From assembly GCA_963712745.1 (NCBI GenBank), contig CAVQJC010000020.1, positions 596,467 through 660,466 of the forward strand: DNA of 64,000 bases. The letters run 5' to 3'. This document shows, piece by piece, positions 2,468 to 64,000 of this stretch. This DNA is from an uncultured Chloroflexia bacterium. GTDB lineage: Bacteria > Chloroflexota > Limnocylindria > Limnocylindrales > CSP1-4. A model generated the notes under the pieces. The model did no database searches. It saw nothing but the letters and a program-made list of their open reading frames with translations, and was not told the origin of the DNA. A program made the position numbers and the translations under genes. Position 1 is the stretch's first letter, and each line of letters starts with the position of its first letter.

Positions 2468-3100
2468 CTAACTCGACGGATTCAGGGCCATGACGGTTGT
2501 CTCCTTGAGGGGCATCTGCAGGCGCCCTCCAGAGATCGCATTAGCTAGCGCGGCCACGGGCATGACGAAGTTGTAGGTGTAGCCGACGGAAACCCCGATG
2601 GAGTCAGGGAACGCACCGGTGTTGTCACGGCTGCATACGGGCCACGATTGTCTCGACGGGTCCGGGCCGAAGACGATCAGCTCGGTGCCGGCTCCGGGAT
2701 CGACGTCGGTCGGGCCGAAGTTCCGATGCCAGACATTCACCGGTCCGGCCTCCGCGCCGGAGTCAGTGGCCTTGAAGATGCGGATCTCCTCTACCTGGGC
2801 AAGCCTGACTCCCGAATCCGGCGACTGAAGGATGCGCTGCACGGCCGCGACCAGGGTGGCGTCGACGCCAGACGGGTCGTCGGGCTGGCCGGGCCCGCAG
2901 AGCGCGGGGTCCCCGCGTGCGAGCGCAGAGCCGACCCGGGCACCTTCTCGGGACCCGTACACCAGCGACTGGACGTTGCCGTAGACCACGCCCAACTCGG
3001 CCACGCTGACCACCAGTAGTAGCACGATGGGCAGGACCAGGGTGGCCTCGACCAGGGCCTGACCGCGCTCGCCCTCAGGACGTCGCGAGAAGAACCTCAT
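2468..3100 (-). CDS. tadE: TadE/TadG family pseudopilin
   Basis: ERG|QALVEATLVLPIVLLL ... SREGARVG signature. Confidence 0.9.
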   Translation of the reverse strand: MRFFSRRPEGERGQALVEATLVLPIVLLLVVSVAELGVVYGNVQSLVYGSREGARVGSALARGDPALCGPGQPDDPSGVDATLVAAVQRILQSPDSGVRLAQVEEIRIFKATDSGAEAGPVNVWHRNFGPTDVDPGAGTELIVFGPDPSRQSWPVCSRDNTGAFPDSIGVSVGYTYNFVMPVAALANAISGGRLQMPLKETTVMALNPSS

Positions 3101-3750: not shown

Positions 3751-4071
3751 GTCGGGCACTGACAGCCACCTTTCGATCGGAGCGCGAAGTCCGGGTCGCC
3801 TACCGGTACCAAAGGACCGGTGGCATGACGACCGGGCCATCTAACGATGAGGACTTCCGGATTTCAATAGAACTATCGGGGGATGGCGCACTGTCTGGTG
3901 ACCCATCGCAACGACGAATCCAGCCGAGTCCGGAGGATGTCTGCACCGGATGTCCCCCGACGGCACCGCACCGGTCACAAGCGCCCACATGCCCTCATCC
4001 CGCCTCCGTCGAGCGTCGATCGACCCGCCGATCGAGGGCGCGGCCTTGTTCGCGTTGTCCAGGCGCGTGGC

Positions 4072-5460
4072 CTACGGTTCGAAGAAGCCTTCCACCTGGG
4101 TCACTTCGACGATCGTGGGCGTCTCACCGGCCACCGTCAGCTCGTAGGTGCCGGGACCGTCGGCGTCGGCCAGTCGCGTGCAGAAGTCGTCGAACGGCGA
4201 GCGGGTGACGTCCTGCCCGTCGATACGGGTCACCTCCGCCCCGAGCTCGAGGTCCTCGTTGCCGGGCCAGCCCTCGAGATAGGCGCCGATCACGTAGCCC
4301 TCGTCCCAACCGAGCGACACCGAGGCGGGGTCAGGGGGTGCGGGCGCATCGTCGATCGGGTCGAGGTACAGCGCGTCCTCAACCCAGTCGATGGTCAGCA
4401 CGAAGTGGCGTAGGAGATCGGTGCCCGCGTCGCCCCGTCCCTGGGGTAGCAGCTCCGACGTCGCGAGCGGCAGGCGCAGTTCGCTGGCCGCTCCCGCCTG
4501 ACCGAACCCCAGGTCCGCGGCGGTCCAACGGACCCGCGTGCCGACCGGGCCGCCCGCGGTGGTGGCCAGCACGGCCGACGCAGGGGCGTCACCCGGGAGG
4601 GCCAGGCCGACGCCCTCGAGGTCCGCGGGGTTGACCGTCAGCCAGCCGTCTGAGCCGGTATCGAGCAGGAATGCCAGGAAGCCCTCCGCCGCACGCAGCT
4701 CGAAAAGCGGTGAGGGCGAGGTGTCCGAGGCGCGGGTGAAGTCGAGCCGGATGGCGCCGTCGATGTGGTCCAGGTCCGCGGTCGAGCCAGCGATGGTGAT
4801 GGTTCGCGCGGTCGGGTCGACCTGCCACACGGCGGTGCGCATGAGGCTGGCTCCGATGAACCCTTCATCGCTCAGGCAGTAGAACGGGTTGCCCGGCTCG
4901 ATGGCGTCGACTACGGCCCCTGCGTCGCTGAATAGCGCGTCGCCGATGGCCAGGCGCGGCAACTGGACGACATCGCTGGTGATGACCTGTCCGTCCGCCG
5001 AGGCGGTGGAGACCGTGCCCGCCACACCGTCGGCGAAGACCTCGGCGATCTCCTGCGAGACGATGGTGGGCGCGCCCGTGTCGACGATCATGGGAACCGT
5101 CCGGCTGTCGTCCCCGAGCGTGACGTCGATGACGATGGAGCCGGCGACCTCGCGGTACGGGACCGTCACGGGGAGGGTGTCCACGTCGACGGTCGTGCCG
5201 GCGAGCACCTCCGCACCGGCGTCCTGGTCCCCGCGGGCGATGAGGACGATGGCCGCGATGAGCCCCACAGCGATGGCGATGATGACCACCGGCACAGCCA
5301 TGGAGGTCGACCAGCCGCTGGGCGGCTCGATGCCGACCGCGGTGGCGCCTTGCGCCGAGTCTGGCGGGCGCTCGGGCTGTGGCTCCGCCGCGTTCGGGCG
5401 CTCGGGCCGGTGCTCGGGCTGGAGCTCCGCCGGGTTCGGGCGCTCGGGCTCGTCAGGCAT
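4072..5460 (-). CDS. Membrane-anchored two-domain retropepsin-like aspartyl protease with C-terminal PDZ-like region
   Basis: Single TM helix, two catalytic motifs (IVDTGA, LLDTGS) and a C-terminal 'EVTRIDG'; start overlaps the upstream GT87 stop. Confidence 0.8.
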   Translation of the reverse strand: MPDEPERPNPAELQPEHRPERPNAAEPQPERPPDSAQGATAVGIEPPSGWSTSMAVPVVIIAIAVGLIAAIVLIARGDQDAGAEVLAGTTVDVDTLPVTVPYREVAGSIVIDVTLGDDSRTVPMIVDTGAPTIVSQEIAEVFADGVAGTVSTASADGQVITSDVVQLPRLAIGDALFSDAGAVVDAIEPGNPFYCLSDEGFIGASLMRTAVWQVDPTARTITIAGSTADLDHIDGAIRLDFTRASDTSPSPLFELRAAEGFLAFLLDTGSDGWLTVNPADLEGVGLALPGDAPASAVLATTAGGPVGTRVRWTAADLGFGQAGAASELRLPLATSELLPQGRGDAGTDLLRHFVLTIDWVEDALYLDPIDDAPAPPDPASVSLGWDEGYVIGAYLEGWPGNEDLELGAEVTRIDGQDVTRSPFDDFCTRLADADGPGTYELTVAGETPTIVEVTQVEGFFEP

Positions 5461-6634
5461 GACTGGTGACGGGTTCAGGGGCGCCGCGATCACGCGGCCA
5501 CAGCGAGTGTGCGGCGACAACGACCAGGACAGTGGCCCCGGCCAGGGCGAGTGGTTCCATCGTCATCGAGATCGACACCAGGCCCGCGGAGGCCACCAGC
5601 CCGACCCGAGCGGTGGTCCCGGCGCGCGGCCATGCCATCGCCGCGAACGGCAGAAGGACGACCAGGTAGTGGTACCAGAACTGTCCAGGCACGAGCAGCA
5701 TCGCCACCGTTCCCATGAGGGCGGCTGCCGGATAGCCAGCTCGCCGTCGCGCCAGCCAGATGCTGGCCAGGACCGCCAGGCCGCCAGCCAAGAGAGCCGC
5801 GACGCGCACGGCCGTGACGACGAAGCCCGGCAGGCCGAGTTGGGCTGCGACGCTGGCGGGGGCCAAACTGGACGGGTGGTTGCCGGAGCCTCCAAGGAGG
5901 TTCATGAGCACGGTCGGGAACTCGAACCACGCTGCCGGCGCAAGGACGAACGAAACGCCCACGATGGCCAGCAACGAGATGGCCAGGGCCGCCCGTGCCC
6001 GGTGGCTCATGGCGACGACCGCGGGCACGAAGGCGACCGGGCTGACCTTGAGCAGCGCCATGGCCGCGGCGCTGACCCCGGCGGCCGTGCCGCCGAACGC
6101 GACCAACGTCGAGCCCAGTGCCACGAAGCCACTGACATTGGCGAACCAGAGCGCCAGCCACGCGGGCAGGAACAGCAGGGTCGCGACCAGGCACCACAGG
6201 CCACGTTCCAGGCTGCGGGAGGACCCGCCCAGCCCGGCACCGAGCCAGGTGGCCGCGTACACCGACACGAACTGCAGGACGTACCACAGGCCTGAGGTGA
6301 GTGATTCAGGAAGTCGCGCCACAGGGGCGAGGGTCTGCGCCAGCGGCGGCGGGTACAGGTAGCCCCAGGTGCCGATCTCGATCGGCCCATTCAGGTGTGC
6401 GGGCAAGTACGGCGAGAAGCCGTCGAGGAGGCGCAGCGAGGCGTCTCGATAGGCGTTGAAGTCGGAGGCGTCCGCGCCGCTGTACCCGAGCGCCACGGTC
6501 CACAGCGCGAGGTGCACGAGGACCCCGACGACGGCCAGCACCAACGCCAGGACGAGTCTGAATCGAGGCGAACTCAGGGCACGCGGCCCCGGTCCTGGCG
6601 AGGCGGCCGACCGCCTCGCGATGCCGAAGTTCAC
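5453..6634 (-). CDS. Glycosyltransferase family 87 (GT-C, DUF2029-like)
   Basis: DFNAY ... YLYPPPLA ... ANVS ... LLKVSP ... WYHY motifs; multi-TM; GTGA overlap with upstream gene. Confidence 0.85.
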   Translation of the reverse strand: MNFGIARRSAASPGPGPRALSSPRFRLVLALVLAVVGVLVHLALWTVALGYSGADASDFNAYRDASLRLLDGFSPYLPAHLNGPIEIGTWGYLYPPPLAQTLAPVARLPESLTSGLWYVLQFVSVYAATWLGAGLGGSSRSLERGLWCLVATLLFLPAWLALWFANVSGFVALGSTLVAFGGTAAGVSAAAMALLKVSPVAFVPAVVAMSHRARAALAISLLAIVGVSFVLAPAAWFEFPTVLMNLLGGSGNHPSSLAPASVAAQLGLPGFVVTAVRVAALLAGGLAVLASIWLARRRAGYPAAALMGTVAMLLVPGQFWYHYLVVLLPFAAMAWPRAGTTARVGLVASAGLVSISMTMEPLALAGATVLVVVAAHSLWPRDRGAPEPVTSHA

Positions 6635-50756: not shown

Positions 50757-52936
50757 TCAGCGAGGCGGCTCGTTCACCTCGAACCCGACGACAGCGAGTG
50801 CTTCGGCCGCGACGGAGCCTCCCCTGTCGTTGGCGTGCATGCCGTCGTCATCGATCCAGCCGTTCTCCCTCGGATCCTCATCGTGCCGCGGCCGTTGAAG
50901 GCGTCGAAGAACGACACGAAGACCGCCCCGTTGGCCTCGGCTGCCTCCTGGATCAGCTGCATCTCGATCTCCCAGTTGGCCGTGCACTCCGGCTCGATCC
51001 CCAACTCTCTCCAAGGAGCGATGAAGGGGTTGCAGATGTCATGCGCTCGGAGGACCACGGGCCGTCCTTCCCGCAGCTTCCAGATGTCGTCGTAGACCTG
51101 GTCGAGGACGTCCCGATATGGCTGCCAGTCCTCGACCGAGGGAACCACCGGCGGCTCCCATTCCAGCCCGGGGGTCCACCCAGGGCCCGAGTAGTCCGGG
51201 TCTCCTTCGAGCGCGTCGAAGCAGCTCAGGATCTTCGGTTGCGGCAGGTCGTACTCCAAGCATCCGGGGTGCGCGCGTAGCACGATGATCTATGCCTCCG
51301 CCAACACCTTGGCCCAGCTGCCCTGGACCATGTCCCGGATCCGGGTGATGGACGCGCCGCCGAGACGGCGGTCGTGGAGCCGGACCTCGCGGCCCAGCGC
51401 CTCGGCTGCCAAGTCAGCGTACCTCTCGGCCACTTCCGCACCACCCGAATCGGACATGTGCACGAGATCGATCGGCTCACCAGCGGGGAACGGCGCAGCA
51501 TCGGAGCCCGGCTGCACCTCGGCCGCGGTCGTCGGAGCCCGGCTGCACCTCGGCCGCGGTCGTCGGAGCGGGCGCCAGCGTCGGAGAGGGCGCCACCGTC
51601 GGAGCCTTGGGGGTAACGACGTACGTATGGACTTCCCGGCTGTCTGGGTCCTGGGCCACGACCCAGACGCCGCCGTCGGGTGCGAAGTCGAGGTCCGAGA
51701 TGCAACTCCCGGAGAGGAACGGCTGCCATGAGTCGCCGTCGAAGCGCGCCAGGCCATCGCATGCGCGTGTGGCGGCGACGGTGGCATTCACCCAGACGCT
51801 GCCGTCTGGCGCCACCCAGAGCGTGTCCATGGTGGTGCCCCACCATGCCGGCTGGCCGCCCCACGGTTCGACCCCGTCGGCTTCGGTGAAGACGGTCCAG
51901 CCCTCCTCGTCGAGGCGGGCCAGGCTCAGGTGCGGGGCGAGCGAGTCGCCGGCCGTCCACAACACACCACCCGGCGAGACGCCGGCCGAGAAGGAGCCCC
52001 CCACCCCTGTGAAGGCGCCGTCGAAGCCCTCGGGTCCGGGGACGACCCCCCAGTCCGTGCCGTCGAAGCGCAGGAACGAGATGCGCCCGCCCTCGGCTGG
52101 CTCGGTCATGAGCCAGGCCACGCCGTCGTCCGTCACCGAGAGCAACGAGGGCCCATCGTGGACATACACACCTGCCCAGACGTCACCCCAGGAGCTGCTC
52201 CCGGCCGAGGTCTCGCCGACCCAGGAGAGATCATCGTCCAAGAGCCAGACCGTGCCATCGGCCTGCACGTAGAACTGCCCGGTGCTCGGCTCGCCAACGC
52301 GAGGGTCGGGCACCCACGCACCATCGTCGAAGAGCCGCACGTAGGAGGGCGCGTCGGGCGACTGGCTGGCCGCTTCGCGGGCCCAGAGCCGCCCATCGAG
52401 GCTGGCGAAGCTCCCACCCCACCCGAGGTACACGAATTCCTGGTCGTAGTCCCACTCCCCAGCCTGCCCGAGTCGGAAGAGACGCCGCCAGGAGTCGTGG
52501 TACGCCAGACGTGGCCGCTGTCCCCCACGATGACACGCTCGCAGTCCCAGGGATAGCCGTCTGATTGATGCAGCAGGTCCCGGTGTCCGTCCTCGACCAC
52601 CTCCACGACGCCCGGCTGTACCTCCTCGGTGACCAGGGTGGAGAGGAACTCCTCGGTCGTCATCGGTGAGGGTGACGCCGTCACCGCGGCTGGGAGGGCC
52701 TCGTCGTCATGCGGCGTGGTGAGGATGCCGGCGAGCAGGAAGCCGCCGAACAGCGCCACGATGACGGCTGCGGGGATGAACCTGACTGCGGAGGACATCG
52801 TGAACCCCCATCTCTGCGATCGGCTCGCGGTGATGACGGCGTCGAAGATGGCGAGATCATCGACCGGGCGCACGTGACCCATCAGGTCTTCGAACTCGCC
52901 CGACAGTTGGCGCTCGAAGGCGGTCATCTCATCCAT
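50757..52936 (-). CDS. Large membrane-anchored anti-sigma-like protein with beta-propeller and SGNH-like domains (multiple frameshifts)
   Basis: Starts overlapping the ECF stop; short cytoplasmic N-terminus, TM (AAVIVALFGGFLLAGIL), repeated 'APDGSVWV / RFDG..W' propeller units, then SDS ... DDGMHAN. Confidence 0.6.
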
Positions 52937-53477
52937 CGCTGAGGTCCTCACGGAGTCGGTCGACCAGGCGCTTGAGGCGCTGGCGGATGGCCGCCGGACT
53001 CCTGCCGGTGGCGGTCGCGAGTTCGTTGGAGTTGAAGCCTGCGCCGTAGCGCATCGTGAGCAACGCTCGGTCATCCGGGTCCAGACGCCGTAAGGCAGCC
53101 CTGAGATCGACGGAGCCGATGCCTGTCGCGGGGTCGATGCCACCCGCGTTGCCCGAGGCATCGGTCGGCAGCTCGAACTCCGATCGTCGCCGCCGTTTGC
53201 GGAGAAGATGCTTGGCCTCGTTGACCGCGACGGACACGAGCCAGGGGCGGAGGTGGTCAGGGCTATCGACCCGGTCGAGCTTCTTCCAGGCGACGAGCCA
53301 GGCTGCCTGGACGGCTTCGTCTGCGATCGAGTGATCGCCGCTGAAGGCGAGGCAGGCCCGTCGCATGTCCTCGTGATGGGCGGCGATGATGCGGCGGAAG
53401 GCGACCTCGTCGCCGACAGCCGCTGACGCGATCACGTCGAACTGCTGCCGGTCTGCCAGCCTTGACACCGCCCCCAT
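52929..53477 (-). CDS. ECF RNA polymerase sigma factor
   Basis: GDEVAF, ADEAVQAAW, LRPWLVSVAVNEA region 2; region 4 HTH. Confidence 0.92.
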   Translation of the reverse strand: MGAVSRLADRQQFDVIASAAVGDEVAFRRIIAAHHEDMRRACLAFSGDHSIADEAVQAAWLVAWKKLDRVDSPDHLRPWLVSVAVNEAKHLLRKRRRRSEFELPTDASGNAGGIDPATGIGSVDLRAALRRLDPDDRALLTMRYGAGFNSNELATATGRSPAAIRQRLKRLVDRLREDLSDG

Positions 53478-53780
53478 ACCTCATAACTCCACGGTGTACG
53501 CCTACTGTGACAAGGTGGGGCAACTTCGATGAGTTGTCGGGCGTGAGGGCCGGCGGGTCCTGGCCCACGCAGTCAGGGTGTCGTGACCAGGGCTGGCCGG
53601 TACGGTGCAGATAGGGTGGCGGGCAGCGTAGGGACTGAGCAGGATGCGGATAGGTGCCGGACTGATCGGCCGGCGCAGCAACTCATGGACGCGGCGCGGC
53701 GCGGAGTCAGCCGACCGCGCTGATCTCTCCATTCAGGTCGCCGTGAACCGTGCCGCGACTCGTCTTCGACGCGAGCAGTG

Positions 53781-53815
53781 AGAAGGGGCCCGCCCCGGCG
53801 TGGGACGGGCCTTCT
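53781..53815 (-). terminator. Conserved GC-rich hairpin after secreted-domain gene
   Basis: Minus strand AGAAGGCCCGTCCC-acgcc-GGGGCGGGCCCCTTCT; same family as the hairpins at 54393 and 62373. Confidence 0.6.
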
Positions 53816-53836
53816 GACGATGGTGCAGCGAGGACG

Positions 53837-54364
53837 CTACACACTCGCCGGTCCGGACAGAGACGGAACTGGCGGGTCGCCGGGGAAGATGAACCCCGTG
53901 ACCTCCCAGGGACCGGACCCGGTCACTCGGTAGTAATAGGACAGCCCGGCGTAGTCACCCGTACCGTTGAGCCAGAAGGTGATGACATCACCCTGGGTCG
54001 GGTCGCTGACGACGCCAGTGTAGGTGCCCTCCCAGGTGCCCCCGTCGTTCGAGATGGTGCCAGCTCCCCACTGCACACCCCCGGCGGGCCAGAGGTCCGC
54101 GTCCCAGGAGTAGTCCACCGCGCCGCTGACACGCGGATCGTCGGTCTCATGCGTGCATGTCGCCCGTCCGCCTCGGTAGTGCATCACTCCGCCGGCCCCG
54201 GTGTCGGTCGTGCCCGTGTCGATCGAGCAGTGCTCGATGCCCGTCACGAAGACCGGGGCGCCATCGTGCGCCGGCGTGGGTGAGGCCTCCTGTGCCAGTG
54301 CCGGCAACGCCCAGCTCGCGAGGCATAACACGATGGCCGCGTCGGCGACCCATAGACTGCGCAT
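53837..54364 (-). CDS. Secreted protein homologous to the outer domain of the adjacent anti-sigma-like proteins
   Basis: GAGGGGG RBS, signal peptide ...PALA, ETDDPRVSG ... NDGGTWEG ... GTGDYAGLSY ... G(x)PP motifs. Confidence 0.8.
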   Translation of the reverse strand: MRSLWVADAAIVLCLASWALPALAQEASPTPAHDGAPVFVTGIEHCSIDTGTTDTGAGGVMHYRGGRATCTHETDDPRVSGAVDYSWDADLWPAGGVQWGAGTISNDGGTWEGTYTGVVSDPTQGDVITFWLNGTGDYAGLSYYYRVTGSGPWEVTGFIFPGDPPVPSLSGPASV

Positions 54365-54392
54365 GACAAGCCCCCCTCGGTTAGTTGTCGTG

Positions 54393-54418
54393 CGCCCGCC
54401 CCTCGCAGGACGGGCCTC
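54393..54418 (-). terminator. Conserved GNRA-capped hairpin after anti-sigma-like gene
   Basis: Minus strand GCCCGTCCT-GCGA-GGGGCGGGC. Confidence 0.6.
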
Positions 54419-54441
54419 TTGATGACGGTGACGTGAGGCGG

Positions 54442-55239
54442 CTACTGGCTCGGCACCGTCGGCATCTCCCAGGCCGCTGGCGGCGGGCCCTGGTAGAGCA
54501 CGCCCACGAAGTCCCCGTTCCCGTCGGGAGGGCTCGCCGCCCCGGCGGCGACGTAGGTCCAGCCCTCGTAGGCTCCGTCGCCGGTGACAACCACCAGCGG
54601 ATACGCCGTGTAGGCGCTGCTGCGATCGAAGACCACGAAGTGGCGACCCGTCCAGGTGCCCTCGGGCCCCTGGAGTACCTCGTCGTACGTTTCGAGGTCG
54701 TTATCGCCTCCGGTGGCATTGACGATCTCCCGTTGCGTGATGGTGGCCGTGCCTGTCAGACGTGGGTCGCTGGCAGTGATGATGCACGTCGCCGTTTGGA
54801 TGCCGTCGGGAAAGTCCCAGGAACACTCCTGGGACGCGGTCACCCGGACCGCGTCGGTTTGCGCAACGATCGGCGCTCCGGGCACGCTACCTCCCTGCTG
54901 GTCGAAGGGCTCAGCGACGAGGAACAGGCCACCGAGGGCGAAGACGAGGGCTCCGGCGGTGATGGCCTTGACGGGACTCAACATGGTGACGGTCCTCCTG
55001 GTGACGATCGGGAAACGATCAATCGACGGTCCGTGGGTAAGTGGCTGAGACTCTGCGTCCCGGGAGGCCGGGCCGCTCCTGCGCTCGAGGGTCGGCAGGG
55101 GCCACCAGCGACTTCGCTGGCGCGTCTGCGGGAGGCGTGACATCACCTCAGAGACAGTCCGCGAAGCGGTATGGGGTGAGCCAGCCGTGGCTTCGAGCCA
55201 CGATCGCACGAGCGAGGTCATCTGTTCGTCGGTCGTCAT
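54442..55239 (-). CDS. Putative membrane anti-sigma factor
   Basis: ATGA-coupled to ECF; RSRWWPLP, TM MLSPVKAITAGALVFALGG, outer domain with SDPRLTG. Confidence 0.75.
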   Translation of the reverse strand: MTTDEQMTSLVRSWLEATAGSPHTASRTVSEVMSRLPQTRQRSRWWPLPTLERRSGPASRDAESQPLTHGPSIDRFPIVTRRTVTMLSPVKAITAGALVFALGGLFLVAEPFDQQGGSVPGAPIVAQTDAVRVTASQECSWDFPDGIQTATCIITASDPRLTGTATITQREIVNATGGDNDLETYDEVLQGPEGTWTGRHFVVFDRSSAYTAYPLVVVTGDGAYEGWTYVAAGAASPPDGNGDFVGVLYQGPPPAAWEMPTVPSQ

Positions 55240-55796
55240 CGCACGACCTCCTGGATGGACGGTGCAGCGGGCAGGCGCTCATCGGCCTCGATGGCGGCCC
55301 GGAGGCCACGCATCGCTCTGCTCAGCCGTGACTTGACGGTCCCGACCGGGATGTCGAGGATGTCGGCGACTTCCTCGACGGGCAGGTCCATGAGGTGATG
55401 CAGGACCACCACCGCTCGCTGTTCGATGGGGAGTCGGTGGAAGGCTCGTTCGAGTTCGTCGCGCACGACGACTCTACCGAGAGCGTCCCCTGCGACCGGC
55501 TCATCCCGTTCGTCGAGATCGGTCTCGGGGAGCCAGCGAGGTCGGCGCTTCGCCTCCGCGTAGCACCTCCGCAGCAGCAGCCGGTACGACCAGCCATCGA
55601 AGCGGCGCGGATCGCGTAGCCGACGCAGGTCCCGCCAGATCGCGAGCAGCGCCTGTTGGACGGCATCCTCGGCCACATCTGGGTCGCGAAGGATACCGAC
55701 GGCCACCCGCTGCAAGCGGGGATGCGCCCGAAGGGCCAGCGCCTCGAAGGCGCTACCGTCACCGTTCTGTGCCCGCACCACGAGTCGCGGGTCCAT
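55236..55796 (-). CDS. ECF RNA polymerase sigma factor
   Basis: MDPRLVVRAQNGD, AEDAVQQAL, FDGWSYRLL, IPVGTVKSRLSRA. Confidence 0.95.
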   Translation of the reverse strand: MDPRLVVRAQNGDGSAFEALALRAHPRLQRVAVGILRDPDVAEDAVQQALLAIWRDLRRLRDPRRFDGWSYRLLLRRCYAEAKRRPRWLPETDLDERDEPVAGDALGRVVVRDELERAFHRLPIEQRAVVVLHHLMDLPVEEVADILDIPVGTVKSRLSRAMRGLRAAIEADERLPAAPSIQEVVR

Positions 55797-56085
55797 GCCC
55801 CCACATCCTCGGACCATCGGTCCTGGACCATCCATGGGACCGCCTTGATGGGGTCCCTACCTGGAACGGGTCGCCCCTGCGCCGGTCAGGTTCCATCTCG
55901 ACCTGCTCCAATGCTGCACCCAACGAGCGCGAAGTCAAGAACCGGTATTGCCATCGACCGTTCCACCCCAACGCCGCGACTCCGAGCGCGTAGCCAAGTC
56001 CGGCTGCAGCGTGCTGTTTTGCAGAGCCCGCTCGTTTAGGCAGTCGCACGAAGCCTGGTTGTCCTGCCAAGCACGGACGTGAGAG

Positions 56086-56200
56086 GCGGGTCAGAGACGG
56101 GAATCGAACCCGCGACATTCCGCTTGGGAAGTCCTTGCTGTGAGCGTAGTGGCACGAGCGTGGAGGGGCGAGCGAAAGTCGACAGTCGGGATGTCGCTGC
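56086..56200 (-). repeat. att-like site A: degenerate tRNA-Gly(CCC) 3' half plus conserved arm
   Basis: 56094-56131 matches 36/38 nt of the consensus tRNA half, CCA end lost; arm GTGAGCGTAGTGGCACGAGCGTGGAGGGGCGAGCG follows on the + strand. Confidence 0.85.
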
Positions 56201-56616
56201 ACCGCTCGGGCAAGCAGGTGGTCGATCGCGCCTCGGCCAACGAGGAGCTGCGCGAGGGCAACGCCACCTTTGTCACGAAGTCCTCGCACACGGTCGGCTC
56301 CCACCCGTGCCGCGTCGCCGACGAGACCGGAACGTGTGATGACTTCTAAGCCCCACACCGAGGCCCAGAGGTCAAGGTCGGCAGTGCCGAGTTCGTCGAA
56401 CTCATCACCCAGGCTCCCGAGATCGCAGACGCGGCCGCGCTCGGTGAGCGCGTCGTGACCGAAAGGGGGAAGGTGTCCTCGTCGCGCCCCATCGATCATC
56501 AGCTCGCCAGTAGCAGCGGTGGCGCCACCTCCGCGGGTCCGGGAACTTCGTGGACAGGGACGCGAACGACGTAGCCACGTGGTCGAGGCGGATTGCCGGA
56601 GACGGTGCGGGCCCGG

Positions 56617-57021
56617 TCAGGACTGTGCGGGTGCCGCGACAGCGCCGGCGGCGCGGGTGGCCTGGAGGAGGCGAAGGCCGAGCACCGTCGCGACGAGGGC
56701 GATCCCCTCGAAGGTCACGGCCAAGATACCTGACCACTCCAGCCACACCTCACCGGACTGACCTGGCAGACCGATGGTCCGGCTGATGACGTACATCCCG
56801 ATCGAGCCCAGCGCGACGAGAGCGCCCAGACTCCACGCGAGTCGCGAGCCAAGGAGGATCCCGACTGCAGCAGCGAGGGCGACCGCGAAGTTCAGCAGGA
56901 AGGAGAGTCCAAGGTACGTCGCGTCGCCGAAGGTGTCCGGGGCGTCCACCAAGTGGACCGTGCCGGACACCACCAATGCGAGTGCGGCGACGATGCTGAG
57001 GCGTTGAATGGTCGATGACAT
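56617..57021 (-). CDS. Small 4-TM membrane protein
   Basis: AGGAG RBS; GTVHL, YLGLSF, YVISRTIGLP motifs, four hydrophobic segments. Confidence 0.75.
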   Translation of the reverse strand: MSSTIQRLSIVAALALVVSGTVHLVDAPDTFGDATYLGLSFLLNFAVALAAAVGILLGSRLAWSLGALVALGSIGMYVISRTIGLPGQSGEVWLEWSGILAVTFEGIALVATVLGLRLLQATRAAGAVAAPAQS

Positions 57022-57360
57022 GGATCGAGGCTCCTTGAGGCCGCGCTGGTGGCCGAGGCGGCTGAATGCCGCAGTTCCAGGACCACCGGGTTCCCGGAGT
57101 CTCGGTAACCCATGTGAAGAACCCATGAATTGACCGTCCAGCAAGCCGTTCCCGTCGGTCGCCGGTCAGTCGGTCCACTCGGCGATGAGCATGACCCCGG
57201 CGCAGAACTGGTAGTCGGTGATGGCAGGCTCGTTGGTCTCTGCGGCGAACGGCGTCCGGTGCGGCGTAACTGGCGCACCGGGGGAGGCTCTACCGACAAC
57301 AAGCCGGCTGCCACCAGGAGTTGCGGGACGAGCACACGCCACGAGCGTGAGTCGAGGGAA

Positions 57361-57470
57361 TGGAACGGGAGACGGGACTCGACCCCGCGACATCCTGCTT
57401 GGGAAGTGGAGAGGCCTGAACGGCGTGCAACGAGCGTGGGAGGGCGAGCGAAACGGCCACAGGTATGGTG
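57361..57470 (-). repeat. att-like site B: tRNA-Gly(CCC) 3' half plus degenerate arm
   Basis: 57361-57406 matches 43/46 nt of the consensus; arm ... ACGAGCGTGGGAGGGCGAGCG. Confidence 0.88.
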
Positions 57471-57509
57471 TAGTGACGAGTGCGACTCCCAGGTCTTCTC
57501 TGCAGGCAT

Positions 57510-57692
57510 CCGAAGCGATGCACCCGCTGGGTCGAATTCGGCGATCCCGACGACGTCGCAGGCCTGGCCGCGTTCCTGCTCACAGCTGATGCCGAATGGA
57601 TCACCGGACAGGTCATCGCCGTCGACGGTGGGCTTTCGGGTATCAAGCTGCCACCCGCCGCTGGCCACTACATGCGGAGCATGTCGCGCTGA
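57510..57692 (+). pseudogene. C-terminal fragment of an SDR oxidoreductase
   Basis: HPLGR | GDPDDVAGLAAFLLTADAEWITGQVIAVDGG; truncated at att site B. Confidence 0.7.
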
Positions 57693-57734
57693 GCGCGAGA
57701 GGATGAGGGATGCCGCGTCGCGCGGCCCGGCGGC

Positions 57735-58241
57735 TCACGCCCCCCGCAGCGCGGCCAGGATGTCGTCCCATTCCCGGTCCTGCGGATCGCCGGCGCCGCG
57801 GGCGAGGATGGTGCCGTCGCGGGTCACGACCAGCGCGTGGACCTCCTCGCCACCCTGGATCGCAAGGGACCGCTGGAAGCCGCGCACGTCCGTGTAGATC
57901 GTGATGGTGCGGGCGAGGACGTCCGGGTCGCCGATGCCGGCTGTCATGCCGCCATCGATGAAGCGCCGGACGGGTCGCCACCCGGTGGCGAGGACGGGAA
58001 GCTCCACGACGGCTGCGGGCAGCGCGCCGGTGAGACCCCGCGGTGTCGGCGGCACGCCATCCGCCACGGCGCGGGCGATCCAGCGGTCGACCCGGGCCTG
58101 GTGCCATTGCCGGAACGCCACGACGGCCAGCGTCCGTTCGGCGGGGAATCCGTGCGGCAGCGCCAGCTCCACGCCCAGGAGTGAGCGGGCGCTGACGGTC
58201 GGGAACCGGGCAGGGGACCCGCCTGTCTGGCTGGTCACCAT
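57735..58241 (-). CDS. Conserved hypothetical protein, ATP10-like thioredoxin fold
   Basis: FPTVSARSL, VVAFRQWHQARVDRW, FIDGGMTAGI, TITIYTD. Confidence 0.65.
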   Translation of the reverse strand: MVTSQTGGSPARFPTVSARSLLGVELALPHGFPAERTLAVVAFRQWHQARVDRWIARAVADGVPPTPRGLTGALPAAVVELPVLATGWRPVRRFIDGGMTAGIGDPDVLARTITIYTDVRGFQRSLAIQGGEEVHALVVTRDGTILARGAGDPQDREWDDILAALRGA

Positions 58242-58263
58242 GCGGCTACCGGTCGGGCGCACG

Positions 58264-58566
58264 TCAGGCACGTGCTCCGGGGTGGGGCAGTGCGATGGGC
58301 CGGCCCTGGCCGAAGAACTGCCCCGCAGCAGCCTCGATGGACGGGTCGACAGCCATGAGGGCGAGCGCGTCCACTGCAGCATCGAGCGGCGTCGCGAAGG
58401 GCACGTGAGGCAGCACGACCTGCATGAACCGCCGCCTGACGCCGTTGGCGCTGGCGGCCGCGGTCGCAGGCACGAACCTCGGACACGCGGTGGCCGGCGG
58501 CGGCGAGCTTCTCCGCGGTGGCCCGTCCCAAGCCGCGCCGCCCCCGGTGATCAGGATGGTCGTCAT
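58264..58566 (-). pseudogene. Internally deleted SDR oxidoreductase remnant
   Basis: MTTILITGG.GLGRATAEKLAAAGHRV N-terminus joined to a C-terminal 'GQFF' region; catalytic core missing. Confidence 0.55.
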
Positions 58567-59012
58567 CGCACGACCATCGTAGTCCGCGGACGGCCAGGGC
58601 TGACGGCGCGCCCCGAGGCGACCCAGCCCGAGCACCACCCCGACCGCCAGCGATGCGATCGGCGCGCCGTGGATGAGCCTGGCCTGACCAGGCTCGCTCG
58701 GGACACCGTCGACGGCGAGTCGCTGACGCTCAAGGACGACGGCGGGCGCCCGATCCTCGTCCTCGCCGCGGCGCGCACGCGGCGTCTAGTGGGAACCCCG
58801 TGGCGGGCGGTCTCGCTCAACGAAGCGCCGGCACGGCTCGCGGAGGCCCAGGGACCCGGTGCTACACTCCAGCTCGAGGCGCGGACCGGACCGTGACCTC
58901 ACCATCAGTCCGTCTCGGCGTCCCAGCGCTCCTCGCTGCGGCGAAGGCCCGCCGCCGACCGTTCCTGAGCAGGAACACCAGAACGGAACCGCGTTTCTCG
59001 GAGGGCACGTTC

Positions 59013-59870
59013 ATGACCAACCCTGCCGCGACTGCGACTGCGATCAGCGCGAAGGCCCCTTCGGGCATCGCGCCTGAGCGAGCCCGCTCGCTGGGCCGCT
59101 GGAACCGCTTCCTGGTCTTCGCCCACGGGGGCCAGTTCGTCCTCATGCTCCTGATCTCCGGGACCGCCGTGCTCTTCGAGGTCGTCGTGCCGACGGCCCG
59201 CCCGATCATCGAGAACGGCGAGTTCACCGGGATCGAGCCGTCGAGCGTGATGCTCGTCTCGTTCCCGCTGGTCTACCTGATCGCCAGCTTCTTCCTGATG
59301 AGCGCCATCGCCCACGCATCCGCCGGCATCTTCCTGCGCAGCCGCTACGAGGCCTGGCTCGCCCGGGGCATGAACCCGCTTCGGTGGGTGGAGTACGCGT
59401 TCTCGTCGACGGTGATGATCGTCGCCATCGCGTACCTCAGCTTCATCACCGAGTTTCCGGCGCTCGTCGCGATCGCCGGCTGCAACGTCGCGATGATCCT
59501 CTTCGGATGGAGCATGGAGGCGGGCAACGAGGGCCGGCTGACAAAGGGCGAGCGCATCGACTGGAAGCACTTCGTCTTCGGCTGCATCGCCGGGGCGGTC
59601 CCCTGGATCGCGATCTTCTCGATCGTGTGGGCCTACTCGGCCCAGGAGGGCCTGCCGCCAGAAGCCCAGATCCCGGGCTTCGTGTACGTGATCATCGCCA
59701 GCCTGTTCGTCGCCTTCAACATCTTCGCCATCACCATGGTCCTCCAGTACGGGAAGGTTGGCCGCTGGAAGGACTACCTGGTAGGCGAGAAGACGTACAT
59801 GGTGCTGAGCCTGGTCGCGAAGTCGCTGCTGGCCTGGCAGGTCTGGTCCGGCACGCTCCGCCCGCAGTAA
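59013..59870 (+). CDS. heR: Heliorhodopsin
   Basis: 7 TM; N..H..Q in TM1 (NRFLVFAHGGQ), SAIAH, NPLRWVEYAFSS, ILFGWSME, YMVLSLVAKSLLAWQ with the retinal-binding Lys; GGAGG RBS. Confidence 0.96.
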   Translation: MTNPAATATAISAKAPSGIAPERARSLGRWNRFLVFAHGGQFVLMLLISGTAVLFEVVVPTARPIIENGEFTGIEPSSVMLVSFPLVYLIASFFLMSAIAHASAGIFLRSRYEAWLARGMNPLRWVEYAFSSTVMIVAIAYLSFITEFPALVAIAGCNVAMILFGWSMEAGNEGRLTKGERIDWKHFVFGCIAGAVPWIAIFSIVWAYSAQEGLPPEAQIPGFVYVIIASLFVAFNIFAITMVLQYGKVGRWKDYLVGEKTYMVLSLVAKSLLAWQVWSGTLRPQ

Positions 59871-59918
59871 ACCGGGCGGCCGCCCGAGCGCACGTCAGCG
59901 GCGAGGCGAGCCTGCCGT

Positions 59919-60090
59919 TCAGCCTCCCCCCCGGTGTGATCGCGCCGATCGCCATGAACCCGAACACCAGCTCGTCCTGCACGAAGTGGATGAACCACGC
60001 GCACGTGAGGCCACGCGTCTCCAGCATGGACCGGGCCAGGATCCAGCTAAGGAACCAGGCCAGCAGGACGCCGATGATGTCGTAGAAGCG
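59919..60090 (-). pseudogene. C-terminal fragment of a CPBP/CAAX (Abi) intramembrane protease
   Basis: GVLLAWFLSWILARSMLETRGLTCAWFIHFVQD; no N-terminal EExxxR part. Confidence 0.55.
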
Positions 60091-60264
60091 GACGATCCCG
60101 AAGCACGCCACCACCATCCGCAGCGCCTGGCGCGAGCCACGGGCTGCACCCCTTCCCATTCTCGAGGTCCGTCTGCCCGAGGTCTACGGTGAATCGAACG
60201 CGGCGATGTGGGACGGGGTCGCGGCGACCAAGCAGGGCGTCGTCCCGAGTTCAGAAGGGGGAAG

Positions 60265-60386
60265 TGGAGCGGGAGACGGGACTCGAACCCGCGACATTCT
60301 GCTTGGGAAGTGTTGGCCTCGTGAGCGCAGTGGCATGAGCGTGGAAGGGCGAGCGAATCCCGATCAGTTAGGGTGTCTTCGCAAGG
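60265..60386 (-). repeat. att-like site C: intact tRNA-Gly(CCC) 3' half plus conserved arm
   Basis: Minus strand CTTCCCAAGCAGAATGTCGCGGGTTCGAGTCCCGTCTCCCGCTCCA (60310-60265); the 5' tRNA half is replaced by the arm ending CAGTTAGGGTGTCTTCGCA (+). Confidence 0.93.
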
Positions 60387-60598
60387 TCCCGCGAAACCCT
60401 GCTTGGGAAGTCTCGGTCGAGTCGACAATGACCCTCACTCGCCTTCCGACGCATGCCGCCACCAGCCCCCTCTGGACTAGACGCCGTCCCTGTAGCCCTG
60501 CAGTCGCAGCCCCTATCCGGCAGACACAGAAGCGGGTCCATCAGCCCGAAGGCCGAGGGACCCTTGCGTCTCGAAGGACGACCCCTTACAGCTCAGGC

Positions 60599-61432
60599 CT
60601 ATTCGGCGGGCGGTGCCTCTGGGAACGGGGGCATCTCGCGGGGGAAGACCGCGCCGGTGACCGCGAACGGCTCATCGTCCGTTCGCTGGAATACAACGAA
60701 TGCCGTCAGGCCGTCATAGCCACCCTCGCCGGTCAAGACGGCGGTCTGGACCGTCAACCCGCCGTCCGTTTGGTGGGAGAGCCCGGTGCCCTGTCCGCTC
60801 CACGTACCCCCGTCGTTCTCGATACGCCATGCATTGGTCACGGGCAACACGCCCTCCGTGTCACTCACGACGTGCCAGTCGAGGTTCGTCACCCACGACA
60901 ACGTGCCGGACACCCGCGGGTCGCTCGTCTCGATGGTGTCGGCCAAGCCCATCTCGTCTCGGATGAGGAAGACATCATCTTCCTCATCCAACGAGCCTTG
61001 GACCGCCGGTCCGGAGGTGACCTCACCGGTGAAGTAGGCCGCGGCGGGTTCGGCGTCGACCTCTGCACCCGGCACGTTGCCTCGCTGGTCGAACGGCTGG
61101 GCGATGAGGAAGGCACCGCCGATAGCGAAGACGATGGCACCGGCGGTGATGGCCTTGACTGGACTGAGCATGGACTGGGTCCTCCCTGTGACGGTGGGGG
61201 TATGGCCGTTGGCGGCCGGGATGGACGTGGGCTGGTAGTCCGTCGTCTGGTCGATAGCGGGCGATGGGGCAGTCTTGCTTCGCCACGTGGGCAACCACCA
61301 GCGGCGACGGACCTGGCCCGTCTGACGGACCTGCGCCATGGCCTGCTGGACGCTGGCGTGCGGGTTGGGATGCGGAGTGGCCTGGTCTCTCAGCCTCTGC
61401 CCTGCGGCTCGTCCGAGGCGGTCGTCAGTCAA
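60599..61432 (-). CDS. Putative membrane anti-sigma factor
   Basis: Coupled to ECF; RRRWWLP, TM MLSPVKAITAGAIVFAIGG, outer domain with SDPRVSG. Confidence 0.78.
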   Translation of the reverse strand: MTDDRLGRAAGQRLRDQATPHPNPHASVQQAMAQVRQTGQVRRRWWLPTWRSKTAPSPAIDQTTDYQPTSIPAANGHTPTVTGRTQSMLSPVKAITAGAIVFAIGGAFLIAQPFDQRGNVPGAEVDAEPAAAYFTGEVTSGPAVQGSLDEEDDVFLIRDEMGLADTIETSDPRVSGTLSWVTNLDWHVVSDTEGVLPVTNAWRIENDGGTWSGQGTGLSHQTDGGLTVQTAVLTGEGGYDGLTAFVVFQRTDDEPFAVTGAVFPREMPPFPEAPPAE

Positions 61433-61989
61433 CTGAGTACCTCCTCCTTCGGGACCCGCACCACGGCACGTGCGTCGGCATCGAGAGCAGCGCGCAGCGC
61501 CTTGAGTGCCCTGCTCTGGCGTGAGGCCACGGTGCTGACGGAGACATCGAGTGCCTCCCCGACCTGCTCCAGCGGTAGGTCGAGCATGTAGCGAAGGACG
61601 ATGACGGCCCTGTGGTCGACCGAGAGTCGAGCCAGGGCCCTGTCCATCTGGTCAGCATGGACGACACCGAGGAAGTCATCGGTGGCTACAGGTTCGCTGT
61701 CCGGTGCTATCGCCGCCTCAGGCAGCCAGTCTGGTCGACGCTTGGCCTCGTCGTAGCAGGCTCTGATGAGCAGTCTGTACGACCAGCCGTCGAACTTGTG
61801 TGGGTCTCGAAGTCGCGGCAGATAGCGCCAGATACCGATGAGCGCCTGCTGTGTGGCGTCATCGGCGACCGACGCATCCCCCAGCACACCGAGGGCGGCG
61901 TTGTACAGGCGAGGATGGATGGCTCCAGCGAGCGTCTCGAACGCTTGCTGGTCGCCCTGCTGTGCTCTGACCACGAGGTTTGGGTCCAT
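61429..61989 (-). CDS. ECF RNA polymerase sigma factor
   Basis: MDPNLVVRAQQGD, ADDATQQAL, FDGWSYRLL, VSVSTVASRQSRA. Confidence 0.95.
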   Translation of the reverse strand: MDPNLVVRAQQGDQQAFETLAGAIHPRLYNAALGVLGDASVADDATQQALIGIWRYLPRLRDPHKFDGWSYRLLIRACYDEAKRRPDWLPEAAIAPDSEPVATDDFLGVVHADQMDRALARLSVDHRAVIVLRYMLDLPLEQVGEALDVSVSTVASRQSRALKALRAALDADARAVVRVPKEEVLS

Positions 61990-62212
61990 GCCCCTCACGC
62001 TTGCTTCGTCAGCCATCCACCGACGGAGAGACCGGGTCCGAGTGGTCCTCTCTGTACTAAGTCATCGGCAGGACGCGATTATTTCCCACATTCGTCGCGA
62101 GACGGCTTGCATCGCACCCATCGGTCAGCCCGTCAGGACCCACAGCTGCCACATCGCGCTCACAACGCTGCGCACAGGCAGACGGTTAGTTGGATCAGGG
62201 ACGAGGGGAGAG

Positions 62213-62334
62213 TGGAGCGGGAGACGGGACTCGAACCCGCGACATTCTGCTTGGGAAGTGTCGCGCTCGTGAGCGTAGTGGCACGAGCGTGGAGGGGCGA
62301 GCGGAAGCGGCTCAGTTAGGGTGTCTTCGCAGGG
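62213..62334 (-). repeat. att-like site D: intact tRNA-Gly(CCC) 3' half plus conserved arm
   Basis: 62213-62258 is identical to the 46-nt half of site C; arm GTGAGCGTAGTGGCACGAGCGTGGAGGGGCGAGCG ... CAGTTAGGGTGTCTTCGCA. Confidence 0.93.
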
Positions 62335-62372
62335 TCAGTCTTGCCGCTCCGCGACCTCCCACCGACACGACA

Positions 62373-62402
62373 GGAGACCCGCCCCTTGCGGGACGGGCCT
62401 CC
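62373..62402 (-). terminator. Conserved GNRA-capped hairpin after anti-sigma-like gene
   Basis: Minus strand GGAGGCCCGTCCC-GCAA-GGGGCGGGTCTCC. Confidence 0.65.
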
Positions 62403-62414
62403 GGTGCAGATGGG

Positions 62415-63193
62415 TCAGTCAGCCGTCGGGGCCGCTAGCGGTCCGTAGGGCGGGAGTTCGCCCTCGTAGAGCACCCCGGTCCAGTCGAAGTCACCGTCGG
62501 ACTCCGGGTCGATGCTCGACGCGACGAACTGCCAGCCCTCGTAGGCACCAGCGCCGCTGAGGACGAGGAAGTTCTGCGTAGGTTCAGGTTCTTCACCCCA
62601 CATGATATACACGTGACCGGTCCAGCTGCCCTCTGGTCCCTCGTGCGTCGATGGCCACCATTCGAACGCATCGTCGCCTACGGCTGGGGTGATTCCCCCG
62701 CCATAGCCATAGTGGATAGTCGACGCGCCCGTCAGGCGCGGGTCGCTGGCGGTCCAGGTACAGACGGGAAAATCACAGGTCTGGGTCACGGTCACCTCGA
62801 CGCCGGGCAGGAACGCGGACTGGGCCCCCGGGACACTGTCCCCCTGCTGGCCGAATGGCTGGGCGATGAGGAAGGTGCCGCCGATGGCGAAGACGAGGGC
62901 ACCTACGGTGATGGCCTTGACTGGGCTGAACATGGTTTGGGTCCTCCCGATGACGGTAGGGGCATGGCCGTTGGTGGCCGGGATGGGGCTGGGCTGGTAG
63001 TCGGTCATGCCGGTGGCCGTGAGTTCGTGGGCCTTCCGGTCGAACAGCGGGAACGGGCCACCAGCGACCTGCTGGCGGGTCTGCGGCACGCTGCGCCATG
63101 ACCCGGGCGACACCGGCTTGAACGTCCCTCGGAACGACTCTCGCGGTCCCGGTACCACGTATCGAGGAGGGACTGCATCTGCTCGTCGTTCAT
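62415..63193 (-). CDS. Putative membrane anti-sigma factor (frameshifted N-terminus)
   Basis: MNDEQMQSLL ... RWWP, TM MFSPVKAITVGALVFAIGG, outer domain with SDPRLTG. Confidence 0.72.
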
Positions 63194-63755
63194 CGCAGGG
63201 CCTCCTGCCGGTCGCGTGGTCGGGGATCACCGTGCGGGCATCCGCCTCTAGCGCAGCACGCATCGCCTTCGTGGCCGCCCGCAAGCGGGAGTAGACCGTC
63301 GAGCGCGGGATAGCCCAGCGTGTCCGCTATCTCCTCCGGGGTCATGCCCAGCAGGTGGCGCAGGGCGAGGACCACACGATGGTCCATCGACAGACGCCGG
63401 AAGCCCCGCTCCAACTGGTCGCGATCAGCGACGCCACCGTAGGCATCGGCTGCCCGTGGTTCGTCAGCGGGCGAGAGGTCGTCGCTGGACGTCCACTCCG
63501 GCTGTCGCTTGGCTTCGGCATAGCAGACCCGCGACGAGCAGCCGGTACGACCAGCCTCGTACTTGGCCGGGTCCGCAGACGTCGGATGTCACGCCAGATG
63601 TCGAGGAGCGCCTGTTGGGTCGACGTCCTCGGCCGAAGGGTGGTCGCCCATCACGCCGTAGGCCACTCGGAACAACCGGGGTAGTCGGCGGTCGCCAGCG
63701 CCTCGAAGGCACGCTGGTCGCCATCCTGAACCCGAACCACGAGGTCTTGGTCCAT
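63190..63755 (-). CDS. ECF RNA polymerase sigma factor (several frameshifts)
   Basis: MDQDLVVRVQDGDQRAFEALA, GWSYRLLV, ERGFRRLSMDHRVVLALRH ... EEIADTLG, spread over different frames. Confidence 0.8.
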
Positions 63756-63959
63756 GCCCCCACATCCCTTTGGCCGACGATCGTCTCTGGCCACCGGAGG
63801 GGACCGAGTCACATCCGGTCCTCTATAGGGTACGGGGCCTACCACATGCAGGATTGCGAGATTCGGTCCTCGCTGCGGACGACCACGAGCGTTGTGGCAC
63901 GCCAGTTCGACGCACCACGGATGCAGGCAGAGTGTCACCACAAGCGTGAAATGAGGGTT

Positions 63960-64000
63960 TGGAGCGGGAGACGGGACTCGAACCCGCGACATTCTGCTTG
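63960..64000 (-). tRNA. 3' end of tRNA-Gly (site E): either the intact tRNA-Gly(CCC) gene or another att-like copy; cut by window edge
   Basis: 41 nt identical to sites C/D, including the T-arm GGTTCGAGTCC and the CCA end; 5' half not visible. Confidence 0.6.

Follow-up and report, generated by a model that had tools for sequence, protein, structure and literature searches.

The window analysed here, a stretch of 64,000 nucleotides (nt) from an uncultured Chloroflexia bacterium of the order Limnocylindrales (genome G000, assembly GCA_963712745.1), ends on the right with a row of gene cassettes that are closed by partial copies of a tRNA-Gly(CCC) gene. An earlier note on this DNA had described five same-strand copies of the 3' half of this tRNA, and these are present as four complete junctions on the minus strand together with a fifth copy that is cut by the end of the contig. 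The 46-nt half is found on the minus strand without mismatch at 60265 and 62213 and with three mismatches at 57361, against an expectation of 0 for this string in 100 shuffles. A whole-genome scan permitting up to eight substitutions located the fourth half at 56086, with eight mismatches, and since these cluster in its last ~9 nt the acceptor end appears to have been replaced; the remaining matches were only two tRNA-Gly(UCC)-type sequences on contig C11. The fifth copy (63960-64000) comprises 41 nt and is interrupted by the end of contig C20, which is also the end of the window. We refer to the four halves as A to D, from left to right. Going outward along the array, the halves of G000 carry 0, 0, 3 and 8 mismatches; this gradient of decay holds in G000 and fails in genome G053, and we dropped it as an argument.

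Alignment of halves A to D places the start of tRNA identity at C+TTCCCAA, one base ahead of the anticodon loop, and upstream of the loop all four share a non-tRNA arm of 70-78 nt, which upholds, to within a base, the edge at the loop and the common arm of ~75 nt reported earlier. In the 4.2-Mb assembly an nhmmer profile of the arm matched four places, all of them in the array (E values of 1e-15 to 2e-20; next best match 0.0017), showing that the arm is not scattered singly through the genome. A profile of arm plus half added one arm-like copy at the tRNA-Gly(UCC) locus of C11, its other extra matches covering the tRNA-half part only. A tRNA-derived repeat resembling miniature inverted-repeat transposable elements or short interspersed nuclear elements was rejected, the copies not being dispersed and the arm occurring only at the array and in that one arm-like copy. 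ARAGORN called no tRNA gene in the window and a search of the window against Rfam gave nothing at gathering score, in agreement with the description of copies A to D as partial tRNAs. A profile built from 47 copies detected no degenerate junction to the left of 56086, where only an isolated copy of a short motif, M (described below), is found at 53572. From the head outward, the array and its surroundings contain the following features (ORF, open reading frame; ECF, extracytoplasmic function; SDR, short-chain dehydrogenase).

63960-64000, minus strand: head tRNA-Gly(CCC), of which 41 nt of the 3' part lie here and the 5' half at the end of contig C17 (ARAGORN on the join)
63922-63959, minus strand: P'-like flank after the head tRNA, with motif M (GACACTCTGCC at 63926)
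62329-63921, minus strand: cassette 1, with an ECF sigma factor in two frames (63464-63763 and 63190-63414) and a partner ORF (62415-63284)
62259-62328, minus strand: arm D (alignment, nhmmer)
62213-62258, minus strand: tRNA 3' half D, 46/46 to the tRNA
60421-62212, minus strand: cassette 2, with an ECF sigma factor (61429-62016) and a partner ORF (60599-61432)
60381-60420, minus strand: truncated extra loop and 3'-half start, fused to a P'-like spacer before arm C (from sequence; weak profile match at 60415-60386, E 0.38)
60311-60380, minus strand: arm C (alignment, nhmmer)
60265-60310, minus strand: tRNA 3' half C, 46/46
57475-60264, no single strand: cassette 3, with a heliorhodopsin, a CAAX-protease fragment, an SDR fragment and an ORF at 57735-58382 (minus)
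57407-57474, minus strand: arm B, a variant arm type (alignment, nhmmer)
57361-57406, minus strand: tRNA 3' half B, three mismatches
56199-57360, minus strand: cassette 4, a single ORF (56617-57144) that has no Pfam match and appears hydrophobic
56132-56198, minus strand: arm A, with the canonical junction of the family, AGGAC/TTCCC (alignment, nhmmer)
56086-56131, minus strand: tRNA 3' half A, eight mismatches, acceptor end replaced
54442-55835, minus strand: ECF sigma factor (55236-55835) and partner (54442-55239) just past the last junction, with paralogues in cassettes 1 and 2, and also present in the downstream flank of genome G021
53572-53582, minus strand: isolated M motif (GACACCCTGAC) ahead of an ECF sigma factor at 52929-53477

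The sigma factor at 52929-53477 is of the type that relatives have behind their tRNA or array, and the isolated M motif ahead of it may be left over from a former flank.

The head of the array was expected, on the earlier account, to be an intact tRNA-Gly(CCC), and two contig ends together with synteny support this. ARAGORN lists 47 tRNA genes in the G000 assembly, and tRNA-Gly(CCC) is not among them. The end of C17 is a tRNA-Gly(CCC) 5' half that stops at TCTGCTTCC, and joining it to the reverse complement of the C20 end yields a 76-nt tRNA that ARAGORN calls as tRNA-Gly(ccc). The region upstream of tRNA-Gly(CCC) in five relatives is syntenic with the C17 end up to about C17:452040. Directly upstream of the tRNA lies a gene for an OLD-family ATPase/nuclease (DUF2813 and OLD TOPRIM; C17:450404-452044, equivalent to L031:18215-19855 on the plus strand); relatives with and without arrays have this gene, which therefore reflects synteny, and we rejected it as a part of the system. 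The ARAGORN list for G000 also contains one tRNA with a four-base anticodon (gaag) and no assigned identity, and tRNA-Gly(GCC) was not found by ARAGORN in this assembly.

Copies of arm plus half were found in five other species of the genus, and the arm is present in 24 of 301 genomes of the family, representing 12 of its 49 genera, often in multiple copies a few kb apart. The 20 loci that we fetched have an intact tRNA-Gly(CCC) followed by one to four same-strand junctions of arm plus half, so that the family layout consists of the head tRNA and then cassettes of 0.8-5 kb, each closed by an arm and a half. The canonical junction, CACGAGSTCAGGAC/TTCCCAAGCAG, occurs exactly in 31 stretches of a species collection, all titled as metagenome-assembled genomes (MAGs) of Limnocylindrales, Limnocylindria or Chloroflexota, and in 86 metagenome stretches; viral contigs gave 0 matches to the junction or the arm. 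The array is a real, lineage-wide feature, the mechanism of which we in part infer. A similar second locus occurs on C11 (positions 1-5950, L032), where an intact tRNA-Gly(UCC) at 5875-5950 (minus strand) has an M-like motif in the flank that follows it, and the very beginning of the contig (57-138), ~5.8 kb downstream of the tRNA, holds a stretch that resembles the arm, joined to a Gly(UCC)-type 3' half.

Across the 12 genera the arm is 80-95% conserved. The alignment of 47 copies gives an arm consensus of ~78 nt that starts with CGACACCCTAACT and separates into at least two subtypes, arm B being a mosaic of two arm types. Motif M (GACACYCTRMY) is related to the start of the arm and recurs ~22 nt past the CCA of most halves in this alignment; it also matches the reverse complement of GCAGAATGTC, the stretch immediately to the right of the loop, at 9 of 10 positions. 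M occurs 25 times in G000; the final 11 kb of the window contain four of these occurrences, all on the minus strand. The arm and M may represent the protein-binding parts of an attP-like site. The arm contains a stem, GCTCGTG/CACGAGC, that, as read from the alignment, varies without compensation in at least seven copies (variant GCTCACG) and so gives no sign of a structured RNA. An RNA gene was rejected as the main explanation of the repeats, in the absence of an Rfam match and of compensated pairs.

Tyrosine-recombinase ORFs were sought with a home-made hidden Markov model and, in G000, also with PF00589. As the earlier note had stated, the intervals contain no recombinase: the home-made model found none in the window, and none lies inside an arm-bounded cassette. 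PF00589 has four matches in G000, none on the window contig (two are Xer-like, one is on C12 and one is a fragment on C17), and the serine recombinases of this genome, one on C1 and a weak match on C5, are both far from the locus. Of 32 fetched loci, three gave tyrosine-recombinase ORFs (in G005 and G196, and in G024 as a fragment); 111 further loci returned the G196 locus again, two near-identical relatives of the G196 integrase on array-bearing metagenome contigs (L162 and L144) and a few weaker matches. No integrase-bearing element with the arm was seen in the 32, the 111 or another 13 loci; the flanks of integrase-carrying elements at this tRNA are different, and the 6.4-kb island that directly follows tRNA-Gly(CCC) in G005, with its truncated integrase, has no arm.

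A different family of small elements uses the 5' side of the same tRNA. These elements, of 3-5 kb, have a tyrosine integrase gene 70-170 bp upstream of the tRNA gene and reading away from it, and they duplicate the tRNA 5' half plus the anticodon loop; they were seen at L041 and L170-L182 (G196, G245, G161, G238, G319, G323, G099, G221, G278, G019, G256, G008 and G153). Integrases of the clade at 85-91% identity always adjoin tRNA-Gly(CCC) and occur in five of 301 genomes, and clades at ~58% and ~50% identity are found at tRNA-Ala(GGC), Arg(UCG) and Pro(UGG). The Gly(CCC) clade, which includes the ORF at L041:6334-7374 (minus strand), occurs together with arrays in G196, in G319 and on two metagenome contigs.

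Several lines of evidence place the crossover in the anticodon loop. Two copies of the tRNA-Thr(CGU) 3' half, lying behind that tRNA in G329, each carry a homologous arm, and the switch in identity falls exactly at the loop. Where a half has no arm, its first base follows T, TT, TTC or TTCC of the loop. Retargeting to tRNA-Thr at the loop and half boundaries inside the loop require a site-specific crossover. For the Gly(CCC) clade of the 5'-side integrases, a 39-nt direct repeat (the 5' half plus TTCCCAAG) lies 2.9-4.8 kb upstream, and the repeats of these elements and those of the 3'-side cassettes overlap only in the loop, CTTCCCAAG, which therefore places the crossover there. The identity block runs from the loop to the 3' end, as in the anticodon-loop class of integration sites, and the 5'-side repeat stops at the same loop. 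We conclude that the array very probably originated by site-specific recombination in the anticodon loop, and that the copies are att junctions, as had been proposed. In G319 (L173:6231-7180) the tRNA-Gly(CCC) gene itself is split, with ~870 bp between the 5' half plus loop and the 3' half; this interval holds two small ORFs that by eye resemble a ribbon-helix-helix antitoxin and a PemK/MazF-type toxin, and the loop adjoining the 3' half reads TTCACAA.

The cargo of the window cassettes was said to include ECF/anti-sigma pairs and a heliorhodopsin. The sigma factors and the heliorhodopsin stand, with Pfam matches for the heliorhodopsin (59013-59870, plus strand, E 4e-75) and for the sigma factor at 61429-62016 and a second sigma factor broken over two frames (63190-63763); the putative anti-sigma partners at 60599-61432 and 62415-63284 have no Pfam match. 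Cassette 3 also holds fragments of an SDR (57480-57692, plus strand) and of a CAAX protease (59731-60159, minus strand). Because contigs of two public sequencing runs, X1 and X4, have an extra C behind 63554, the frameshift in cassette 1 may be an assembly error or a strain difference, and in the latter case the sigma factor may be intact in other populations. Across loci there are 52 att-to-att intervals, from 822 to 11973 bp long and with a median of about 2.2 kb; many of them contain just one ORF, and many cassettes measure 0.8-1.7 kb with one intact ORF. The 141 ORFs in these intervals match 102 Pfam families, the commonest being cyclases and sigma-70 domains (five each) and TPR, LuxR and ArsR types (four each), with two heliorhodopsins. 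In cassettes of up to 5 kb, 40 ORFs read in the direction of the tRNA and 41 in the opposite one. No fewer than four ECF sigma genes are packed into 11 kb inside the window (52929-55835, 60599-62016 and 62415-63763); three have paralogous partner ORFs that share a 161-nt segment at 87% identity, and relatives too have two copies of the 52929-53477-type sigma factor near tRNA-Gly(CCC). An exact tandem duplication of a 31-nt unit is present at 51501-51562, in a long ORF region.

Cassette content and order vary between species, as the earlier note had anticipated; few cassettes are common to several species, and their positions in the array differ. Cassette 3 (60306-57502) is 98.5% identical over 2807 bp to its counterpart in G014, against 68-71% for neighbouring core genes, and has different neighbours in the two genomes. 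One cassette, that with the heliorhodopsin, has thus recently crossed between species, and since the two species share the same gene fragments at this identity, the remnant itself moved. The sister species G269 and G157, with flanks that are 96% identical, differ in arrangement: one has a segment D, the arm, the loop, the half and a segment P in an unbroken run, and a single cassette of the other has P at one end and D at the opposite end, which is a circular permutation about the att site. Just past the G269 array, a 4.4-kb stretch is 95% identical between L034:14461-18833 and L048:10469-14840, from genera g46 and g36, and may be another recent transfer.

Within genomes, halves are 96-100% identical and arms 73-91%, in a comparison of copies with a half at least 90% like the consensus, which retained eight of the 14 genomes with at least two copies. 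Near-identical halves with diverged arms are what separate insertions of diverged elements would leave, and duplication does not fit this pattern. Arm-only and half-only relics also exist among the loci. A search for sequencing runs returned 22, all as Logan contigs and with a best share of 0.47, of which X1-X4 were compared with the window. Their contigs are mostly 200-650 nt long, none covers a junction with both flanks, and no circle was seen among them; one joint from 56181 to 57503, which skips 1321 nt or about one unit, was present in a single X3 contig with a side of 30 and is too weak to count.

The account that we consider probable, while leaving ample room for doubt, is that the array consists of att-bounded mini-elements without an integrase, similar to cis-mobilisable elements (CIMEs) and moved by a tyrosine integrase acting in trans. 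The right end of the window would then be a tandem array of four integrase-less mobile cassettes (1.2-2.8 kb) behind an intact tRNA-Gly(CCC), integrating by site-specific recombination with a crossover in the 7-nt anticodon loop. The circular form of a cassette would carry an attP-like site composed of the arm (which starts with M), the loop, a full tRNA 3' half and a short flank bearing M; on insertion the 3' half of the cassette would rebuild the tRNA, and each junction would then read arm plus 3' half. The tyrosine integrase would be supplied in trans, because the cassettes encode no recombinase; the circular intermediate and the identity of this enzyme we infer. The best candidate for the helper is the clade of small integrase elements at the 5' side of the same tRNA, which cross over in the loop as well. 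Trans-mobilised minimal cassettes are the best single account of the observations: a conserved arm, cassettes with no trace of an integrase, sizes that suit one gene and the copy in a second species would all follow from them.

A number of observations weigh against this account. The 98.5% block does not reach arm B but breaks off at a 180-bp indel, 15-35 nt short of it, and the two arms are only ~85% alike; a simple element would have brought its own arm. The recently transferred cassette stands third in the row and not at the head. Between G000 and G021 the head cassette is 79% identical (79-84% including the downstream flank) and the downstream ECF pair 84-89%, and what lies between them is different, so that change has been internal and not at the head. 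The half closest to the tRNA shows the most decay in G053. When the comparison of halves and arms is left unfiltered, over all 14 genomes, arm-only copies lower the mean identity of the halves to the level of the arms. Nor does the account explain why M is duplicated. On the side of the enzyme, the cognate integrase was not found in the assembled 84.55% of G000, and G209, G157 and G053, which have two to four near-perfect repeats, contain only one Xer-like pair each, with no resolvase in G209 or G157 (completeness of G000 and these three genomes is 79-92%). The integrase family is not enriched in arm-bearing genomes, being present in 10 of 24 against 113 of 301 overall; this tally includes the unpublished genomes G229 and G120, and our other claims are independent of both. 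A tyrosine integrase beyond the right end of the array, for which the earlier note proposed to look, is not found near the G000 tRNA. Upstream sequence extends for 1.3 kb or more in 21 arrays, and in one of these an ORF of the integrase family lies beside the tRNA, within 1.5 kb (the underlying table has 22 rows, one being the internal L041 site, and counts arm-less halves as junctions).

A broader version of trans-mobilised cassettes is possible, and we put it forward tentatively: a gene-capture system throughout the Limnocylindrales lineage, with the tRNA as a dock, cassettes of cargo plus attP-like site exchanged between species, and the recombinase coming from the 3-5-kb elements of the 5' side. 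This would amount to an integron analogue that is split and two-sided and has its integrase only transiently, and cargo might be loaded at a second site marked by the M motifs.

A more conventional explanation, which we consider unlikely, is tandem accretion followed by decay, in which the units are remnants of integrase-bearing islands (of phage, integrative conjugative element (ICE) or integrative and mobilisable element (IME) type) that entered at tRNA-Gly(CCC), and no minimal cassette moves. Such islands do use this tRNA, as the 6.4-kb island of G005 demonstrates, but that island lacks the arm, and no arm-bounded cassette retains an integrase remnant. The gene fragments in cassette 3 and the arm-only and half-only relics look like decay, and the three-step route is the textbook origin of a CIME according to the available part of one source (PMC5704250). 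Set against this are the many small cassettes with a single intact ORF, the conservation of the arm over 12 genera and the presence of cassette 3, fragments included, in two species at 98.5% identity.

It is distinctly unlikely that the repeats are fixed products of one or a few old integrations, perhaps with a host function, between which cassettes are swapped, duplicated or deleted by homologous recombination or unequal crossing-over while gene conversion from the tRNA keeps the halves uniform. This would suit the internal turnover of the array, the paralogy of cassettes 1 and 2 with the downstream ECF pair, the M motifs on both sides of the cargo and the array genomes without a dedicated recombinase, and the 98.5% block has its edges where crossovers in the half and in or close to the arm would put them, arm B being a mosaic. 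The anchors for such exchange are however short (46 nt for the half, and ~75 nt at 73-91% identity for the arm), retargeting to tRNA-Thr and the loop-internal half boundaries need a site-specific crossover, neutral repeats should not persist conserved in 12 genera, and the uncompensated GCTCACG hairpin variant gives no sign of a structured RNA. That populations were stitched through a common ~125-nt repeat into a false array with a false transferred cassette is very improbable: every genome involved is a MAG, the G000 contig breaks inside the repeat and the frameshift of the window is absent from other contigs, but arrays lie inside contigs of 0.2-2.7 Mb in many independent assemblies, with a regular same-strand layout and syntenic flanks.

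Returning to trans-mobilised cassettes, we compared the array with known systems. It works somewhat like an integron, in that small units, independent of a promoter and with diverse accessory cargo, stand in a row and carry a conserved recombination site each and no recombinase, but it lacks a resident integrase, attC sites and co-oriented cassettes. The model of a resident integrase fails, with an integrase next to the tRNA in only one of 21 arrays; the sites are a tRNA half plus an arm and not attC hairpins, with no compensated stem; cassette ORFs occupy both strands (40 and 41); and insertion at the head is unsupported, the recent transfer standing third. The integron analogy of the earlier note is thereby weakened. 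The pdif (Xer) modules of Acinetobacter plasmids and the IMEX elements (integrative mobile elements exploiting Xer) are likewise small recombinase-free units, which are moved by XerC/XerD at dif-like sites with the enzyme encoded elsewhere. The site-bounded units of the array share with them the absence of a recombinase; on comparison by eye with a consensus, no dif-like sequence was seen in arm or half.

The earlier suggestion that the array is not a described system was too strong, since CIMEs with tandem accretion and accretion in Prochlorococcus tRNA islands are close precedents in the portions of those sources available (PMC5704250; 10.1101/2020.12.28.424599). In ICESt1-related elements of Streptococcus, CIMEs are att-bounded, have genes for neither integration nor transfer, form tandems at the 3' end of the target gene and use the integrase of another element (PMC5704250, in part). 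The units described here are likewise flanked by att direct repeats of the target 3' end and contain no integrase or transfer genes. They differ in that up to four stand in a row, many being 0.8-3 kb and single-gene, in the ~75-nt arm that is conserved over 12 genera without a parental ICE or IME bearing it having been found, and in that most genomes have no resident helper. CIMEs are presented, in that portion of the source, as decay products and not as a self-standing cassette family (PMC5704250).

Among tRNA islands with an anticodon-centred attP, as far as the accessible text of the Islander paper goes, the crossover is in the loop, the tRNA is restored, a 3' fragment is displaced and tandems arise (PMC4383910), all of which resembles the array. 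Islander requires an integrase per island and, for 2168 genomes with 3919 islands, lists 125 tandems of at least two, only four of them of at least three; few of the islands (159 of 3919) have 5' fragments (PMC4383910, same text). The arrays of three to four described here have no integrase at all, and a whole integrase family uses the 5' side of the tRNA. In Prochlorococcus, elements integrate successively at one tRNA with older elements displaced inward, leaving partial tRNAs and adaptive cargo, and tycheposons carry their own tyrosine recombinase, 937 integrase-carrying elements having been screened (10.1101/2020.12.28.424599, in part). Accretion at one tRNA, partial tRNAs and accessory cargo are shared with the array; its cassettes differ in having no tyrosine recombinase of their own, and a conserved long arm and rows of integrase-less cassettes are not described in the available sections of that work (10.1101/2020.12.28.424599). 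Our literature search, which covered main texts, turned up no paper on arrays of this type and none on a mobile element of Limnocylindria; supplements, such as that to the tycheposon study, may contain cases without an integrase.

The array explains the assembly breaks at tRNA-Gly in these genomes, and the Gly(CCC)-clade integrase together with the arm-loop-half site is a concrete candidate pair for site-specific recombination. Standard island finders would miss the cassette route, because an integrase is required for each island (PMC4383910, in the part available). If minimal cassettes do move, the att logic of a tRNA gene would support integron-like stacking without attC hairpins, and uncultured Chloroflexota of soils and sediments would trade single accessory genes, such as those for sigma factors, cyclase-type regulators, rhodopsins and hydrolases.

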